Positions 14,971 to 26,120 of a DNA stretch of 64,000 nucleotides are shown piece after piece. The number at the start of each line of letters is the position of its first letter. Position 1 is the stretch's first letter. The notes below the pieces were generated by a model that worked only from the letters and a program-made list of their open reading frames with translations, did not search any database and was not told the DNA's origin. The position numbers and the translations under genes are program-made. Source of the stretch: Heptranchias perlo (taxonomy: Eukaryota); assembly GCF_035084215.1 (NCBI RefSeq), contig NC_090347.1, forward strand, positions 16,554,001 to 16,618,000, read 5' to 3'.

Positions 14971-15867
14971 GAAACTGCAAAATGAGGGGTTGTGGGTCTC
15001 AGCTGAGAAAAGGTAGATTCAGAGAGGATGTAAGGAGACAATACTTTACTAAGAAGGTAGTTAGTTATCGGAGCAGCTTATCAAGGAGGCAGTAGAAGCA
15101 AGTAGCTTAGATATCATAGGTATCTATTTGTAGAGCCTCACGACTAAACTCATCATTTCACTGTTGCTGTTGACCCATTTTCACTAGGATTTGCACAACT
15201 GCAGCTTGACCCTCAGATTTTTTGAAATTTACAAGAGGTCAAATGGCTCTTTAGCTGCATCGCAAGTACATCATGATTGGCTGCAGTTTTTGTTGCCGCT
15301 AATGGAATTGCACTGCTCATAGTGAGAACTTAGGAATGCCACGCACTCCTACGATTCAATTTTATTAAAATGGTTGAAACATGCTTTCTTCCATTTTTTG
15401 GAACAGAGGTATGTCAGTCCCTATATGATTTATTGAGAGTCTACTTATGTGCTTATTCAGATTCAACTGTGCTGACTCTTTCAGATATATGGTAGATCAG
15501 TCAAAGGTAACATCGAACAGGACTGCAGCAACCTTACTAAATGCAGCAACAGGACTGCAGTTGCTTTTTGCATGTCTCCAACAAAGCCCAGCAGCAGGGT
15601 GCCCTCCTTTTTATACTGTTTTGCTTTTCCTCTCACTATCCCTGGAGCTGTAGCCTCCTTCAGGTGGGAGTGAATGGGTCGAGGATGATATCTGAGCTGT
15701 AGACTTCTTTACAGGTAGACATGCGAGATACGCAGGGGGCAGTGTCTGCGCTGCAACTTCTGTGTTCAGAACAAGCCAACTATATCACATCTACTTCTAA
15801 CCAAGAGAATGAAGCATCCTGTCGTAGCATGGAACTCCATGCAGTGCCTTAGCTGAGAACTGATAGT

Positions 15868-16345
15868 ACATAGAATTTACAGCACAGCCCAACTGGTCCA
15901 TGCCGGTGTTTATGCTCCACACTAGCCTCCACCCACCCTACTTCATCTAACCCTATCTGCATATATTTCTATTCTTTTCTCTCTCATGTGTTTATCTAGC
16001 TGCCCCTTAAATGCATCTTTGCTAGTCACCTCAACTACTTCTTGTGGTAGCAAGTTTCACATTCCAGCTACTTTCTGGGTAAATACGTTTCTCCTGGATT
16101 CCTTATTGCATTTATCAGTCACTATCTTATATTTGTGTCCTCTAATTTTGGATTCCCCCACATGTGGAAACATCTTCCCTATATCTACCCTATCAAACCC
16201 CTTCATAATTTTAAATACCTCTATTAGGTCACATCTCAGCTTTCTCTTTTTTTTAGAGAAAAGAGCCCCAGCCTATTGAATCTTTCCTGATAGTTATAAC
16301 CTCTCAGTTCTGGTATCCTTGAAAATATTTTTGCACCTTCTTCAA
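15868..16345 (-). mobile_element. CR1 LINE 3' fragment
   Basis: CATAGAA tail plus the antisense of the ORF2 C-terminus. Confidence 0.75.
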
Positions 16346-19275
16346 TAGCGGGAAAGTTTAACTGACAGGGAGCTCTGAGATCTGAATCCTTGGAAATCTG
16401 GTTTAGAGACATGTGCCCTGCTGCCTGCGTAACCAGGTCACCTCTGCAGTAACATTCTTGGTAGCCTGTTTTTTAGTACAACCTTCTTGTACCTCAGTTT
16501 CAGAGGCAATATTGTGTGCTTCCTGTAGCATAAATAGTGATTGGGATTACAGGCCTAAAGTGAATCTAAAGAATGTTGATATGGGTATTAAACAACATGG
16601 GGGGGTGTCAGAGTGCTGGACTGCATTTGTAAACCAGCATGTAGTGGCTTGAAGTGCCAAGGCGGTGGGATTTACAGCCTTGAATCCTGACATGGCCTAT
16701 TGTTCAATCTCAGATTACTGTCAGCAGAAGCTCAGGAACATGTCCACCCTCTCATATGCTGGACGTCCTACAAAAGCACTCTGAAATTGGGACCTAAATA
16801 AAAATAGTATAACATTGCCTTTGCAGGACTTACAAGTAGTTATACCATGGTAGAAGAGCCACTGACATTCACTGTTTAAGATTAGTCACTTGGTTGAGGT
16901 ACTGGAGGGCTACAGGAGCCTACAGAACTGTATTCTAACCGTGTTTTCAGGAGACAAGAGGGGATTTTTTTTTTAAAAAGCAGCAATGATTACAACTTGG
17001 ATGTATGAGAATAGAGACCAGCATGTTTAGTGTGTGTTAGCCAGCACTATTCCTCCTTATTCACACTTGTGTTAAAAAGAAGCAGCAATGTGAGGTGCAG
17101 CACTGGCACCAACAGCTTGCACCATGGAATGGAAGCGGGATTGGGCCTGCAGGCCTCTACATGCTGAGCTGGAGGTCTCCCCCTGGCACTGCTCCACTGG
17201 GAGGGAGAAAACTGTCAGAGAAAGAGTGACCGAGTCATCCTTTCTTTCCTATTTAAAATGACTTATAAGCATAAAAATGTAGGGAGGAACTTTCCAAGGA
17301 TCTGTGCCATGTACTTTGCACACAATGGGCGACTTACTGGAAAACCAGCAGTAAAAGGAGGAGGGGTAGTAGTTGTAGAATAACCTGTAGCCTTCTGTAG
17401 CCATGGTCTCAGTTCCATATTAGGTGATGTACCTACCAACTGAGAAATCCTCTGTTAATTAGAAACCTGCTCCTATCTAAGAAACTAGTTTGTGTGAAAA
17501 CCATTAAAGCTGAATTAAAATTGATAGTGTCGTTCAAAAATAAAGGCAAGAGGATTGTTATTTTGTTGAATTTGAGGATCTTGTCAACTTGTTGTCTCAC
17601 GGTTTGTTTAGTAGAACCACATTCAGGTCTTCTATTGACTGGATTACAATCCCTGTTTTTTAGTTGAAAGATATCTGGCTGTACAAATGAATTCAATAAA
17701 GCATGATCCATTTTGTCTCAGGACTATATTTAGCAACCCGTATTTGATTGAGTAAGCTTGAAAAGTTTAATTGTGTATCAGAATATAACTGTTGTGTATC
17801 ACTATTAACTGTGCTGCAGTGTTTCAATTGTTTCAAGTTACACTGCTGGTAACTTAAGTTCAAAGACTTTATTTGATAATATTCCCTCTTTAGGGACTGA
17901 TTCATATTGGAGCACGATTCCACAGATGATGACAGTCCTATAGTACCCAGATGTTTTACAGATGTATGAGCCTAGACAGTGAGGCCTTGAAATTCTGGGG
18001 GCTGGGAGGGCAAATGTTGGGCAAATTGCCCGTGGGTGGGCTGCAATTTGGGTGGAACCCTTACTCGCTGGGATTTTGCCCTGTTTAAAGAATGGCCCAA
18101 ATTCCAGTGGGGGAGTCTTTCACCTGCATCTGCCCACCTCACCCACATCAGAGGACAGCTTCGGGAGCATGTCTTGGGGCTACCCCAAGAATTTTGCTCA
18201 TTGCATCCTCCACAATTGAAGCCACACCAGTTGACAGCTGGCATGAATTCTGCAATGGACCTTTTAAAGGACCCAAAAGGTTCCCTTGAACACGTAACTG
18301 AACCCAGAAGGAATCAGCTACCTTACAATTGAGACCCATATTTCCCTTTAAGGAAATAAATTAAAATTTTACAACTAGCTATTCGGCCATTGGAGTCTCA
18401 CAACATGCTATATAGAATATAAAAATAAGGACAGAATGTATGACTTTAAAATTGGGTCTGAATTTTGTCTGCGTGTCCTGGTCCACTTCTCCTGTCCTAT
18501 AACTCCACTTTACCTCTTCACCTGAAGACAACACTTGGTCTTTATTCACCGCATGAAACCCCACAAGAGAGTGACTAGTAATACGTTCAAAATCTTACAT
18601 CTGCATAAACTTCCTGTCAACTTTTTTCATTATGATTTCCTATGTCCACACTTACAATGGAACTGCTGTAAACTCCTTCTGTCAGTGGAGGCACTGGATG
18701 TAGGAATTTATAATTAGAAATATAAAAATAAAGGCAGAATATATGACTTTAAAATAGGGATTGAAATACATGTGTGTCTCATAGAAACATAGAAAATAGG
18801 AGCAGGAATAGGCCATTCGGCCCTTCGAGCCTGCTCCGCCATTCAATATGATCAAGGCTGATACTCTATTTCAATACCATATTCCCGCTTTCTCCCCATA
18901 CCTCTTGATGCCTTTTGTGTCTAGAAATCTATCTAGCTTCTTAAAAATATTCAGTGACTTGGCCTCCACAGCCTTCCGTGGTAGAGAAATCCACCACCCT
19001 CTGAGTGAAGAAATTTCTCCTCATCTCAGTCCTAAATGTCCTACCCCGTATCCTGAGACTGCGACCACTCGTTCTGGATCCCCCAGCCAGGAGAAACATC
19101 CTCCCTGCATCCAGTCTGTAGCCCTGTCAGAATTTTATACGTTTCAATGAGATACCCTCTCATTCTTCTCAACTCTAGTGAATAGATGATGTGGAGATGC
19201 CGGTGATGGACTGGGGTGGACAAATGTAAGGAATCTTACAACACCAGGTCATAGTCCAACAAATTTATTTTAAAA

Positions 19276-19312
19276 TCACAAGCTTTCGGAGATTATCCCC
19301 TTCGTCAGGTGA
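19276..19312 (-). ncRNA. Minimal type I hammerhead ribozyme motif (left PLE arm)
   Basis: Minus strand reads UCAC-CUGACGA-A-GGGGAUAAUCUCC-GAAA-GC-UU-GUGA. Confidence 0.7.
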
Positions 19313-20095
19313 ATGAGTGAAAGGTTCTCAAATCGCATATCTTATATTAGGCTGGGACACCATCACACCAATCAAAAGGTGTCGTTGGTGTTCAGACAGA
19401 TTAGCCACGGAGAACAGTACGTCCCAGTACACTGGATATACATTGTTTCAGATTACACAGACAAGAGACCCAAATGGCAGAGAAAGAGACCCAAATGGCA
19501 GAGAGAGAGAGAGAGAATATTAAAAACAGATAACTTTTTTTTCCCCTTGCTGGTGGGGTTACGTGTAGTGTGACATGAACCCAAGATCCCGGTTGAGGCT
19601 GTCCTCATGGGTGCGGAACTTGGCTATCAGTTTCTGCTCGACGATTTTGCGTTGTCATGTGTCTCGAAGGCCGCCTTGGAGAACGCTTACCCGAAGATCG
19701 GTGGCTGAATGTCCTTGACTGCTAAAGTGTTCCCCGACTGGGAGGGAACCCTCCTGTCTGGCGATTGTTGCGCGGTGTCCGTTCATCCGTTGTCGCAGTG
19801 TCTGCATGGTCTCGCCAATGTACCATGCTCCGGGGCATCCTTTCCTGCAACGTATGAGGTAGACAACGTTGGCCTAGTCACAGGAGTATGAACCATGTAC
19901 CTGGTGGGTGGTGTCCTCTCGTGTGATGGTGGTATCCGTGTCGATGATCTGGCATGTCTTGCAGAGGTTGCCGTGGCAGGGTTGTGTGGTGTCATGGACG
20001 CTGTTCTCCTGAAGGCAGGAGAACATGGCGTAGTTTCTCCGCTCCGGGGAAGTACTGGACGACGAAGGGTACTCTGTTGGATGCGTCACGGGTTC

Positions 20096-20677
20096 CGCAG
20101 CCTTCAACATGTCATCGATGACGACGAACACCTCGCTAAGGCCATCCCCACGCCTCCACTACTCACCTTCAAACAGCCACCCAACCTCAAACAGACCATC
20201 GTTCGAAGCAAATTACCCTGCTTTCAGGAGAACAGCGTCCACGACACCACACAACCCTGCCACGGCAACCTCTGCAAGACATGCCAGATCATCGACATGG
20301 ATACCACCATCACACGAGAGGACACCACCCACCAGGTACATGGTTCATTCTCCTGTGACTCGGCCAACGTTGTCTACCTCATACGATGCAGGAAAGGATG
20401 CCCCGGAGCACGGTACATTGGCGAGACCATGCAGACACTGCGACAACGGATGAACGGACACCGCGCAACAATCGCCAGACAGGAGGGTTCCCTCCCAGTC
20501 GGGGAACACTTTAGCAGTCAAGGACATTCAGCCACCGATCTTCGGGTAAGCGTTCTCCAAGGCGGCCCTCGAGACACACGACAACGCAAAATCGTCGAGC
20601 AGAAACTGATAGCCAAGTTCCGCACCCATGAGGACAGCCTCAACCGGGATCTTGGGTTCATGTCACGCTACACGTAA
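20096..20677 (+). pseudogene. PLE linker plus GIY-YIG endonuclease domain (5'-truncated, frame open)
   Basis: FKQPPNLKQTIVRS, PC..NLCKTC, NVVYLIRC..C...YIGET..TLRQRMNGHR, HF, E..LI..F, LNRD are typical PLE GIY-YIG motifs; RT absent. Confidence 0.9.
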
Positions 20678-20915
20678 CCCCACCAGCAAGGGAAAAAAAA
20701 AGTTATCTTTTTAATATTCTCTCTCTCTCTCTCTCTCTCTCTGCCATTTGGGTCTCTTTCTCTCTGTCTGTTTAATCTGAAACAATGTATATTCAGTGTA
20801 CTGGGACGTACTGTTCTCCGTGGCTAATCTGTCTGAACACCAACGACACCTTTTGATTGGTGTGATGGTGTCCCAGCCTAATATAAGATATGCGATTTGA
20901 GAACCTTTCACTCAT

Positions 20916-20952
20916 TCACCTGACGAAGGGGATAACCTCCGAAAGCTTGTGA
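20916..20952 (+). ncRNA. Minimal type I hammerhead ribozyme motif (right PLE arm)
   Basis: UCAC-CUGACGA-A-GGGGAUAACCUCC-GAAA-GC-UU-GUGA: catalytic boxes CUGAnGA and GAAA, helix II, palindromic AAGCUU in place of helix III, 4-bp helix I. Confidence 0.7.
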
Positions 20953-21744
20953 TTTTAAAATAAATTTGTTGGACTATAACCTGGTGTTGTAAGATTCCTT
21001 ACTAGTGAATACAGGCCTAGTCGACCCAATCTCTCATACGACCCAATCTCTCCTCCTGGACTAATTATCCCCCAGCCTCTAAACTCGTTTCTCCTGAAAA
21101 CAAGGGAGATCAACTGTATATGCAAATAAATTCAGACACTGATAAGGCTAGCTCAGTTTGCAAAAGATCAAGTTGCTATTACAATAAAGGAAAAGAATTT
21201 TAATCTGAGAAGCTGCATTAACACCCAACAACTTATTACCCTTTTTTCTTTACCTTGTTTTAAATGCAGATTTTCAAAAGTATTACCAACATCCGTATAA
21301 AATCACAAAGTCAAGAGCGAATCAGGAATTTATTTTTTATATCCCTAATTAACGCAACAATTAAAAAAAAATTGAGAGTGCAGAGCAAAGGCCTCAGAAG
21401 AGGGCACCACACCCAGTCACACAGCCCAAAATACTTGTTTTTACAAGACAGAGCTACTGCCCAGATTACAGTGTGTTTAAAATGTGGTTGTGTTTAAAAA
21501 TATCAGTAACAACTGGAACTTGAAGCAGAATGCAGCCGCTTCCTGCCACATTTACATTCAGTCATAACAATGTAAAGTGATATTACTCAGCTCCAACGTT
21601 CAGCCGTTGACCGTCTCAGCCCCAGAATTCAGTCCCTGCCTGGGCTCCAGCACTCAGTCCCCGATCCAACTCAGCCCCAGCACTTAATCCCCAATTCGAC
21701 CCCAGAATTCCATCCTCGCCTAGGCCTCAGCACAGGGCCTGACC

Positions 21745-23197
21745 CTTTTTATAAATATATTATGAGAAAAACAGTGGTAAAGGAAAATGTGGGCCCACTA
21801 AAAACAGATATAGGCGAGCCAATAATGGCCAGGAAGGAAATGGCAGACTTGTTAAATGGGTACTTTGTTTTCACAGTGGAGGAAGAGGATAATATGCCAA
21901 CGGTACAAGGGGACCTATAAATAAGTCAAGGGGAGGAACTTAGTGAATTTAATATGTTTAAAATGGTAATGGAGAAAATAATGGGACTTAAGATAGATAA
22001 ATCTTCTGGACGTGATGATTTCCACCCCAGAGTATTAAATGAAAAATGTGAGGAAATTGCAAATGCGTTAGTCATAATTTTCCAGAGCTCTCTAGATTCA
22101 GGAATTGTGCCTTTGGATTGGAAAATTGCAAATGTCACTCCATTATTTAAGAAGGAGGGAGAGAAAAACTAGTTTAACATCAGTTATCATCATAGACAGA
22201 GTTACTGAGCACTTGGATGTTTTAAACTGGATAGTCCGGCAGTGACGGATAGAATACTAGAGCCTGGTCTTCAGTTACTTCCAAGCCTTTATTCACAGAG
22301 CTCCACATTACACACACCACACCCTAGATAAACTCTCTTATGTATGGATACGAGTGCCCCAATTGATATGCACCACCTGAATACAATTAACAGTAATTGA
22401 TATAAATCACATGGATACAATTAACATTGGACAAGTATGAGCTGATCCTCATGTATTTATGAAGGAAAGATCTTGTCTGACTTATCTAGTTGAATTTTTT
22501 GAGGAGGTCACTATCATGATGGATAGATGGTGAATATATGGACTTCCAGAAAGCATTTGACAAGGTTCCACATAAGAGATTATTAGCAAAAAATGAAAGC
22601 CCACAGAATTGGAGGTTGACATCAGTTGGGAGGTAGGAGACAGAGAGCAGGGGTAAAGAGAATATTCTGATTGGCGGTATATGACAATTAATTTTCTCCT
22701 GGGATCTGTAGTGAGGCCTCAGCTTTTCAGCATATATATTAATGACTTTGATGAAGGAATCGAGAGTTGTGATCCAAGTTTGTAGATGGCACTAAATTAG
22801 GAGGCATAGTAAGTTGTGTGGATGGGAGCAGGAAGTTGCAAAGGGGCATGGACAGACTAAAGGAGTGGGCAAAACTGTGGCAGATGGAGTTTAATGTAGG
22901 GAAGTGTGAGGTCATTCATTTTGGATTCGAGAAAGACAAATCAAAATATTTTTTTAATGATGAGAGACCTGGAGCTGTGGAGGAGCAAAGACGTTTGGAT
23001 GTCCATGTGCACAAATCACTAAAAGCTAGTGCACAGGTACAAACAGTAATCAAAAAGGCAAATGGAATGTTGGCCTTTATCTCAAGAGGGTTGGAATTCA
23101 AAAGTTGAGGAAATGATACTTCATTTGTACAGAGCCTTGGTCAGACCCCATCTGGAGTACTGCGTTCAATTTTGGGCAACAAACCTCAGGAAAGATA
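21745..23197 (+). mobile_element. Degenerate CR1 ORF2 fragment, interrupted by a solo LTR
   Basis: [54 protein letters not shown] remnants. Confidence 0.85.
22218..22426 (-). mobile_element. Solo LTR (209 bp), LTR-retrotransposon type
   Basis: TGTT...AACA termini; exact 5-bp TSD TTGGA (22213-22217, 22427-22431); AATAAA on the minus strand. Confidence 0.8.
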
Positions 23198-23199
23198 CA

Positions 23200-23536
23200 G
23201 AGAGTCAGAGGTGCCTGCTCGCTCCCTCCTTCCATCAGCCATTTATTCCTCAACTTGTTCCACAGTCTTTGCAGCCAGAATGCACCTCCCCTTTAAGAGA
23301 TGCTAGCTGCCTTTAAGTAGCACCCTGGGCTCCCATTATCGCCCCCCCCCCCACTTTTAGGCGCGTGCAGCCAATAAATAGCGTGGGTACCGCTGGCTGC
23401 ACACACAAATCACTATAATTGTAATTAGCAGGCAACGCGGATATTTATGCTGCCTGCATTAATAGTAACAGGTGTGGGTAGTCCGCGCCCCACCCTCCCC
23501 CCAGACCATTTTTGGATGCGATCCAATTTCAAGGCC
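23200..23536 (-). mobile_element. Left end of a Harbinger element related to 9607-9860, opposite orientation
   Basis: TGCACCTCCCCTTTAAGAGATGC..GCTGCCTTTAAGTAG and CAGCCAAT..GCTGGCTGCAC match the reverse complement of about 9715-9840; ends in CCAATTTCAAGGCC. Confidence 0.7.
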
Positions 23537-24819
23537 ATTACGTTTACAGGCCAACTTTAGTGGCCTCGGTAAACAAATGACTATTTTATAAAGTTGACTA
23601 TTTGTTATTGATCTCTATTATAAGTTATTCAGGACCGCAAAAAGTGCCTTTACCAGATAAATGATTGCTGTATAGAGGTTGGAGTAAGCTCATTTTGCAC
23701 TGTACACTTCACAGTTTAACAATTGCTGTATTTGATATATTTTAGAATAAGGCGAAGAAGAGATTGTAGAAGGACTCAGGGCAGTAAGAAAGACTGTCCT
23801 ATTCTGTGAATCTCTCAGATTTCTCGCTCATTCCCCTTTTATATATTACACTATTATCACCCTCAGCAGAAGCCTGTGGTGGGAAATATAAATAGCCTGT
23901 GCCAGTGCCAATTGACGTCAAATCGTCATCGGATCTGGCTGTGGGCTGGCTGACTCCCTAGCAATGTGCTTTTAGCACTGCTGGCCTATGTGGACCTTTC
24001 CCCGACATCAAGAAAGATACTGGCCAGGCTGGCAAAGTCACAAATTCGTTCACTACTTCAGAGAGACTGCATGTTTGAATCTCATGCACGCACAGCTTTC
24101 CATGATGCTGAATCTGTCCTGCAGAATAAACAGGGCAAAGGCAGCACAATAACAACTAACTTCCAGCGCAAGCAGTTCAATAATATGCTGTTAAAGAGAT
24201 TTGGAAACTCTGACATGTTCTCCTGTAAATATGTTGGACGTTTAAAGTGTTTTGACAGTATTGAGTTACTTATAAGAAGTGCACCATTCTTACACATGCA
24301 AGCCTATATTTTAGCAATCTTCCACTGAGCAGCTATTGTTGCATATAACTTATAAATAGCATGCATGCATTTCTGCTTTGTTTCTTCAATAATGAGTGGT
24401 ATGTCCCAGAGGCAGCTCTGTAATATAAAAGGAGCATTAAAATTATCAGCCCCTAATTGGTTCCTACCCTGGCAATATTCTAAAATAGAATTGGCTCATT
24501 ATTTTTATATTATTGAAAATAATCTGTTCTTATCTTAAGTTTTTTGTATATTTCATATACAAAAGTTATGCAAAACAAATATGGATATTTCACGTGCTTA
24601 GGACCCAGCCTCCTCAGGTGCAGTAGACTGCAATTTCATTTCATTTTTTGTACCAGTTTTTTTCCCTGCCCCTCTCTCTTGAAGATGTTGATTTCTTGCT
24701 CAGGTACAGTTCCATAGGCACCAGCCCACCTTCTTCATGCGCAGGGTGGGCTGTTTAACTGTGGGGATCATTATATCCAAACCTGTTCCTGTCTTCATCT
24801 GCCATCCACACACAAGCAT

Positions 24820-25170
24820 TTTTATTTTTATTTGCTCTCAAGATGTGGGTAATACTGAGAAGGTGGCATTTATTGCCCGTCCCGAGTCATGGCAGCAATT
24901 GTTTTCACAACTGAGTGGTTTGCTAGGCCACTTCAGATAATATTAAGAGTCAGCCACGTATTGTGGACGAGAGTTGTATGGAGGATAGATCAGGTAAGAG
25001 TAGGTTTCCTTTCCTGAAGGACATTAGGGAACCAGTTGGGTTTGTATGATAATTTGACAGCTTTCTGGTGCTAGTCCACAAAGACTATTGAATTCAGTTT
25101 CATAGCTTGCTACGGTGGGATTTTGAACTCACGATTTCTGGGTTGCTAGACCAGTATCATAACCATACTT
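24820..25170 (-). mobile_element. tRNA-derived SINE with the same tail as the LINE at 35295
   Basis: B-box-like GTGAGTTCAAAATCCC at the minus-strand head; tail GGGCAATAAATGCC...CCCACATC plus an A-rich end. Confidence 0.55.
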
Positions 25171-25228
25171 GGTAGTGTAAAAGTTAGTCGTACTAGTTGT
25201 CATTCAATAGTGGCCAGAAATGAGAACT

Positions 25229-25664
25229 TGGCTTAGAGGTAGCGTGCTTGACTCTGAATCAGAAGGTTATGGGTTCAAGTCGTACTCCAGGATTTGAGCA
25301 CATAATTTAGGCTGACACTTTAGTGCAGCACTGTTGGAGTTGCTGTCTGATGTCTTTCCAATGATATGTTAAACTGAGCTTCTGCTGGCTCAGGTAGGCA
25401 CAAAAGATGTCATGGCACTATTAGAAGAAGAGCAGGGGCGTTCCCCTGGTGTCCTGGCCAATATTTATCCCTCAACCAAATTTACCAAAACAGATTATCT
25501 GATCCTTTATTCATTGCTGTTTGTGGGACCGTGCTTTGCATAAATTGTATATAGCTCTTGCCTATATAGCCAAAGTAACTACGCTCCAAAAGTAAATAAT
25601 TGGCTGTGAAACACTTTGGGACAACCTGAAAGGCACTATATAAATGCAAGTTGTTTCTTTCTTT
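25229..25664 (+). mobile_element. Deu-domain SINE (SacSINE1/AmnSINE1-like)
   Basis: tRNA-like head (GGTTCAAGTC), core GAAGAAGAGCAGGGG..GGTGTCCTGGCCAATATTTATCCCTCAACC, L2-type tail GGCACTATATAAATGCAAG. Confidence 0.8.
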
Positions 25665-25950
25665 AACCCGTGTCAGGTTTTTTCCCCCTTGGGTTAGGTG
25701 CCAACGGTATACTCTATGGATGGAATCTGGGACCCCCTCGTTTACATGGCTCAGCTATTCATTGTCTTAATCTGCTGAGCCATCAGGGGAGTCCTCATTC
25801 CACCTCTGTAACTAGCTACAAGACAGTTGTTTTCCACAGCTGTATGGGTGACCTATCTGCAGTCAAACTTGCATGAAAATTCTCTCCAAGTGTATAACGC
25901 TTTTAATGTGTTCCTCTCTTCCCCCTCCCACCCCCCTTCTCCCCATGCAG

Positions 25951-26120
25951 CAGACACGCCCGATGTGTATATTGTGGAACGGCTGTTTTCCAGCAGCCTG
26001 GTGGTCATTGTCAGCCTCTCAACACCACGGAGGATGAACGTTTATCATTTCAAGAAAGGGACAGAGATCTGCAACTACAGCTATTCCAATACCATCCTCA
26101 CCGTTAGGCTCAACAGACAG
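25951..26120 (+). CDS. WIPI1: WIPI1 exon 3 ([56 protein letters not shown])
   Basis: Polypyrimidine tract plus cag, gtaaga donor, 170 nt, conserved WIPI sequence. Confidence 0.97.

Follow-up and report, generated by a model that had tools for sequence, protein, structure and literature searches.

A Minimal Hammerhead Motif of a Penelope-like Element and Its Mirror Copy in an Intron of a Shark PROPPIN Gene

Known Hammerheads of Mobile Elements and Introns

The minimal hammerhead motifs (min-HHRs) of metazoan Penelope-like elements (PLEs) were described by Cervera and de la Pena in 2014 (PMC4209133). In the sections of that article and its supplement available here, these motifs have the core boxes, an unpaired base separating 9 from 10.1, a G10.1-C11.1 pair and a palindromic 15.2-16.2, lack helix III, possess a 4-bp helix I and are located in the pLTR. 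According to the same sections, a monomer from a related PLE did not cleave and dimers cleaved at a low level, and pairs of hammerheads on opposite strands, 100-700 bp apart, had also been observed.

The endonuclease-bearing (EN+) PLEs of the Neptune and Nematis types, as presented in the accessible part of Craig et al. (2021, PMC8557442), encode an RT plus a GIY-YIG region at the C terminus, together with a CX2-5CxxC linker common to the two. From that part and from the portion available of a study on rotifer Penelopes (PMC3846280), EN+ insertions are known for 5' truncation, partial tandems, an inverted 5'-truncated copy, a one-sided tail of 30-40 bp and a target duplication of 8-13 bp. Other information has been obtained on the green anole's Poseidon element, PAc (Frangieh et al. 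2024, PMC11167929). In the excerpts at hand, cleavage of the anole motif needs the protein of the element and no RNA-seq ends are reported at its cut, catalytic mutants still insert in vitro, the templates read through the uncut hammerhead, and the tail corresponds to the stretch between two reverse-transcription starts.

Ribozyme motifs in sense orientation are also found in introns, namely the amniote hammerheads of RECK, CTCL and DTNB (PMC6155905) and the HDV-like ribozyme of Cpeb3 (PMC10919898), which, in the passages available, are conserved across species and have complete folds. The latter source describes tuning of Cpeb3 by its ribozyme and cites Fong 2009 for slow intronic ribozymes that leave splicing unaffected. 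A further class, the non-LTR retrozyme, is defined in the accessible text of a 2026 preprint (bioRxiv 10.64898/2026.07.22.740005) as a short, non-coding unit repeated head to tail, with at least two sense hammerheads; one chondrichthyan is covered there. The literature search returned no report on PLE hammerheads of sharks and, as far as the PMC4209133 supplement could be consulted, no shark row was found among its matches, while Lunse et al. 2017 may include shark motifs.

The Motif and Its Mirror

The window discussed here is a 64-kb stretch of the Heptranchias perlo genome (contig NC_090347.1). On its plus strand, sense to the host gene, a 37-nt motif at 20916-20952 has the features of a minimal type I hammerhead, as judged from its sequence, its folding and pair counts across subfamilies. 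Helix I (20916-20919/20949-20952) has 4 bp, helix II spans 20928-20931/20937-20940, the palindrome AAGCUU (20943-20948) stands in for helix III, and the predicted cut lies at 20948/20949. The core boxes CUGANGA and GAAA are both present with an N-U-H cut triplet, an unpaired extra A follows A9 at position 20927, the G10.1-C11.1 pair closes helix II, and 15.2-16.2 is GC. This anatomy, like the second copy on the minus strand at 19276-19312, agrees with what the initial annotation had drawn. The same traits, together with the absence of helix III and the location in the pLTR, are those listed in the consulted sections of PMC4209133, whose supplement, in the part available, includes a turtle motif that shares the G-C-U-U junction and one from lamprey that shares helix I. 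The two sequences thus read as textbook minimal type I hammerheads, of the PLE kind that would need a dimer, as the initial annotation had also recognized.

The two copies differ by a single base, which has a small effect on the pairing that both were said to keep. The minus motif is the normal version of its subfamily, where an A-U pair makes helix II five pairs long, as in 94 of the first 100 subfamily rows counted by eye; the plus motif carries at that base a rare C (1 of the same 100 rows), which breaks the fifth pair. Helix II is short here (4-5 bp, one of them G-U), a difference from the motifs of PMC4209133, and its predicted probability for the 37-mer taken alone drops from 0.99 in the minus copy to 0.5-0.6 in the plus one.

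No match to the motif occurred in 200 base-shuffled windows, against two in the real one. The Rfam hammerhead models, to which the initial annotation had looked for confirmation, gave no hammerhead match over 15000-26000 with E up to 10; these models expect a helix III. An AATAAA hexamer, also sense to the host gene, lies at 20959-20964, 10 nt past the predicted cut and ahead of a GU-rich stretch. It is kept in all the subfamilies seen, and it may be a poly(A) signal of the element or, possibly, an intronic poly(A) signal for the host gene.

One Insertion with Two Head-to-Head Arms

Both motifs belong to a single Penelope-like insertion (19185-21002), recognized by its arms, tail and target duplication, in which two 5'-truncated copies are joined head to head. 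Comparison of the arms delimits the left one at 19226-20019 (minus strand) and the right one at 20217-21002 (plus strand), the latter comprising the end of the endonuclease ORF and the 3' UTR/pLTR with the hammerhead. Each arm is about 790 bp long; they are 95% identical over 801 columns with 16 substitutions, and because they are only 2% apart the insertion is young. The target site duplication of 9-10 bp has its left copy at 19175-19184 and its right copy at 21002-21011 (both plus strand), the first base of the latter being shared with the end of the element. A one-sided tail of about 40 nt (19185-19225, minus strand) is present on the left arm only; in the tandem units of a sister subfamily its counterpart continues until the ATG of the following ORF. 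This tail corresponds to that of PAc, as described in the excerpts of PMC11167929, and the reading of templates through an uncut hammerhead is likewise shared. The two elements differ in that PAc belongs to another clade and has the start of its ORF within the hammerhead, the ATG of the present family being found 92 nt past the cut.

The ORF remnant (20094-20677, plus strand) is truncated at its 5' end, and it retains a C-x4-C-x2-C linker and a GIY-YIG-type endonuclease region and no RT; the hammerhead is located 239 nt past its stop, in the pLTR. Its identity to residues 684-881 of a relative, P0001, amounts to 92%. P0001 is an open stretch of 881 residues at another locus, in which an RT domain, the C-x4-C-x2-C linker and a DKG motif are present. 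A Pfam search with the remnant of the window alone gave no match, while RVT_1 was detected in a 95%-identical relative and homologues are annotated with PF01541 (GIY-YIG). The nearest named homologues of the element ORF come from Heptranchias perlo (95%), Scyliorhinus torazame (85%) and Mustelus asterias (81%), all of them sharks, which points to a shark as the host. The insertion derives from an EN+ PLE with a single ORF in which the RT precedes a C-terminal GIY-YIG region, and the linker points to the Neptune or Nematis type. In its 5' truncation, inverted copy, partial tandems of relatives, tail and target duplication, no essential difference was noticed from the EN+ PLEs of PMC8557442 and PMC3846280, within the parts of those sources available.

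The centre of the insertion (20020-20217) is rearranged. The order a-b-c of the native element reads here reverse(c) reverse(a) b c, and a short word is shared where the jump occurs. A 75-nt piece that natively precedes 20094 is found on the minus strand at 20020-20094, ahead of a gap of about 123 nt, and is likely a template-switch scar; likewise, the whole rearrangement likely arose from a template switch during copying. This central strand switch is present in contigs.

The flanks of the insertion belong to a high-copy repeat, which we take to be CR1-like and which is uninterrupted in other copies seen in contigs. Some contigs join 19184 directly to 21015-21017, and this joint is read as other copies of the host repeat; an empty allele was rejected as its origin, given a depth of 82-153 at the joint against about 13 in the unique flank. 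Open frames directly right of the insertion, at 21800-22200, presumably are a fragment similar to LINE ORF2. Elsewhere, 30% of the element ORF recurs at 94% identity in P0024, a protein entered in the database as an isoform of epn2; this is either an exonised copy of the element or an annotation error.

A Very Numerous Family

In 3.25 Gb, the motif pattern has 78,825 matches, compared with 1 for a control with the reversed pattern, and a looser version has 83,855, compared with 120 in the control. The subfamily of the window accounts for 2,372 copies. By comparison, far fewer motifs, 4,000 and 9,000, were given for coelacanth and Xenopus in the available sections of PMC4209133, with other descriptors. 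A search aimed at families with a different helix I, through another base directly past the cut, returned 579 matches, nearly all of them point changes of the same family; set against 78,825, this figure points to a young family.

Among the first 100 matches listed, 22 divergent pairs within 4 kb comprise 44 motifs, together with 4 convergent and 10 same-strand arrangements. Because 44 of these first 100 matches sit in divergent pairs like that of the window, the mirror copy is a routine by-product of insertion. In all 12 of the two-armed loci inspected, which were picked by hand, the two flanks have 8-13 nt in common. Of the 22 divergent pairs, 11 are tiny, with cores that start 37-69 nt apart and arms that end 3-18 nt upstream of the core, and these arm ends may mark the start of the RNA. 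As for same-strand neighbours, 5 of 10 from the same first 100 matches are spaced 3,080-3,086 nt, and the three tandem loci that were fetched contain a whole ORF between two sense hammerheads. In one tandem unit measured, the hammerheads are about 3,081 nt apart and the ATG follows the predicted cut by 92 nt.

The conservation of the helices with covariation across genomic copies, on which the initial annotation had staked the motif, was assessed on 37 copies, 23 of them distinct, namely the two of the window, the first 30 genome matches and 5 hand-picked; the rows are related by descent and the core was fixed by the search pattern. Pairing was found in 91.8% of the cells and two-sided changes at 3 of 9 pairs. 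The covariation score was reached by none of 500 shuffles and exceeded that of slid controls. Seven of the 9 two-sided cells fall on the fifth helix II pair, itself unpaired in 6 of the 23 rows, and the G10.1-C11.1 pair is G-C in 23 of 23 distinct rows, its C being fixed by the pattern. These counts lend modest support to helices I and II being kept with covariation across subfamilies, and the published alignments of PMC4209133, so far as they could be seen, support the structure more strongly.

The Host Intron

The insertion lies in a GT..AG intron of 25 kb (948-25950) between two plus-strand exons, 865-947 and 25951-26120, of a PROPPIN gene, and the predicted cut is placed 5.0 kb ahead of the 3' splice site. 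Against human WIPI2, the exon at 25951 agrees at 45 of 56 residues and a paralogue on contig C25 at 55 of 56, the latter compared by eye; because the paralogue is closer to WIPI2, the host gene is named WIPI1 by exclusion. In contigs of four out of four RNA-like runs, all from one sample, 947 is joined directly to 25951. Sense orientation within an intron, as initially annotated, is hence confirmed by exons and spliced contigs, the gene name by exclusion. According to the contigs, splicing removes the 25-kb intron that holds the insertion; they attest presence only, in one sample that may or may not carry the insertion, and they are compatible with cutting of a fraction of the pre-mRNA.

A Hairpin as the Predicted Standing State

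As the arms diverge from the centre, with their 5' ends meeting, the antisense arm is transcribed first on either strand, and the layout bears out the earlier proposal that each transcript contains one ribozyme plus its antisense. The predicted fold of the nascent plus transcript up to 20952 has 36 of the 37 ribozyme bases paired with the mirror, with probabilities of 0.0000 for helices I and II, and in the minus transcript all 37 are paired with the antisense. The duplex is predicted at -67.6 kcal/mol, against -6.9 for the fold of the monomer, and the whole 790-bp hairpin at -1556 kcal/mol, in an equilibrium model that treats RNA apart from proteins, editing and kinetics. Since the antisense arm comes first and pairs with the motif, the predicted state is permanently off. 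The idea that hairpin formation could switch cleavage found no support, and neither did cleavage of the WIPI1 pre-mRNA: the 64-kb window contains no second sense hammerhead as a dimer partner in cis, divergent pairs are routine, and a spliced mRNA exists.

Very probably, then, the hammerhead in the WIPI1 intron is sealed in the 790-bp hairpin and likely never cuts, and the motif of the family likely works in tandem units. The sequence of events would be as follows. One head-to-head insertion of a young PLE family would have left the hammerhead here twice; in the host pre-mRNA the antisense arm would be made first and, according to the folding model, would seal the motif before any cut. The likely working place would be the intact tandem units, in which two sense hammerheads about 3,081 nt apart enclose a whole ORF. 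By analogy with other elements, these may pair through the AGCU palindrome, probably with the element's protein, and the predicted cleavage would occur 92 nt ahead of the ATG. The need for a dimer, the slow rate and the help of a protein are all carried over from other species and would apply here by analogy. The tandem step is weakened by the folding results, because the lowest energy for two copies (-19.8) belongs to a state other than the modelled double hammerhead (-12.9) and because neighbouring sequence competes with both helices, whose probabilities in 111 nt of context are 0.06-0.18.

Genomic Junctions

Core-less copies provide a tally of 5' junctions around the cut site. From 100 core-less matches listed, 96 were fetched and 94 were distinct, and 15 of these were dropped as intact register-shifted cores, leaving 79. 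Junctions at the predicted cut number 4 of 79, with 7 at -2, 3 at +2, 13 at +3 and 40 at +4/+5, where the last bins also take junctions further on and three of the +3 rows resemble shifted cores that escaped flagging. No peak of genomic 5' ends at the cut is present among the 79 junctions, and both arms in the window read through the site. These data, together with the arm ends slightly upstream of the core in the tiny pairs, fit copying from uncut RNA, cut RNA that is not copied being invisible to the tally. Many core-less fold-backs are centred on an AT-rich palindrome 5-10 nt past the cut, which is a junction hot spot distinct from the ribozyme site.

Alternative Explanations

The alternative that survives best, though we still regard it as rather unlikely, is that the family keeps the hammerhead for a job other than cutting, as a protein-binding fold near the RNA start or in a promoter or poly(A) context, with cleavage rare even in tandem units; the WIPI1 copy would be likewise inert. 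It agrees with the missing pile-up of junctions at the cut, the weak dimer energy and the 11 divergent pairs, of 22, with arm ends 3-18 nt upstream of the core, as well as with the in vitro insertion of the anole catalytic mutants (PMC11167929, excerpts). However, the core, the extra base and the palindrome are kept across distant animals in the part of the PMC4209133 supplement available, the same traits recur in a second family of this genome with CG in place of GC, and the anole motif does cleave with its protein, according to the same excerpts.

An effect of the insertion on its host through the 790-bp dsRNA (editing, small RNAs) or through the sense AATAAA at 20959, and not through the ribozyme, is improbable. 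The predicted stability of the hairpin (-1556 kcal/mol) and the orientation of the signal would favor it, but the AATAAA would itself lie inside the duplex and a spliced mRNA exists. No A-to-G rows indicative of editing were found in the contigs over the insertion; these are flooded by other copies, hence this result weighs little. The same contigs yielded no RNA ends either, and they bear on cleavage in neither direction.

Still harder to credit is a reading in which the element protein, when expressed, licenses unpaired sense copies to be cut within host pre-mRNAs, while head-to-head pairs survive in introns, disarmed on both strands by the upstream antisense arm. The density of about 80,000 motifs per genome, or one per 41 kb, means that most long introns hold one. 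If this explanation were true, the genome would bear a transposon-triggered ribozyme load with a safety catch, and lone sense copies should be in short supply in introns.

Regulation of WIPI1 itself, with the plus hammerhead cutting the pre-mRNA in mid-intron whenever the hairpin opens (through helicases, editing, or trans pairing that involves element RNA and protein), is highly improbable. The intact core, sense to the gene, with its predicted cut 5.0 kb ahead of the 3' splice site, the detection of element sequence in RNA-like contigs and the precedent of Cpeb3 (PMC10919898, in the passages available) can be cited in its favor. Against them stand the antisense arm, which is made first and is predicted to seal the motif, the lack of a second sense copy in 64 kb, the weakened helix II of the plus copy, the spliced mRNA across the intron, and the youth of an insertion that is one among tens of thousands. 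The motif resembles RECK, CTCL, DTNB and Cpeb3 in being sense and intronic, but those ribozymes are conserved and complete (PMC6155905 and PMC10919898, in part), whereas this one is minimal, belongs to a recent repeat copy and has its own antisense upstream. A domesticated intronic ribozyme is unlikely, as the youth of the insertion and the family (arms 2% apart; 579 copies changed at one site against 78,825) argues against it. A non-LTR retrozyme was rejected: the insertion is head-to-head, ORF-derived and has one sense copy.

Finally, a chance match or an assembly artefact has practically nothing left to commend it, for although Rfam gave no match and no contig spans the whole insertion, the motif is absent from 200 shuffles and occurs 78,825 times against 1 in the control, while the target duplication, the one-sided tail, the 16 arm substitutions and the contigs carrying the central strand switch speak for a real insertion.

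The Family as a Test Bed

With the sealed hairpin as the preferred reading, the copy in the WIPI1 intron matters little, being one of tens of thousands of insertions and predicted to be inert. This type of motif, its GAAA-GC-UU junction and the opposite-strand pairs were already published in 2014, as the accessible part of PMC4209133 documents, and the copy number is the only unusual figure. That number makes it feasible to examine activity in vivo through the orientation of copies in introns, and the family constitutes a test bed for what PLE hammerheads do in vivo. Its assets are young copies, intact tandem units of 3,081 nt, covarying subfamilies and the very high motif count, and because of them both the orientation bias in introns and the junction statistics can be measured with power.

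The second family of this genome has an unrelated minimal hammerhead, with the CG palindrome, a 5-bp helix II and a longer helix I. It occurs eight times on the same strand in steps of 8-22 kb at C1:927781-1017683. Two of these copies, which were fetched, belong to a near-perfect tandem unit of 8-9 kb that contains two long open frames, one of them a PLE-like ORF with 32% identity to P0001.
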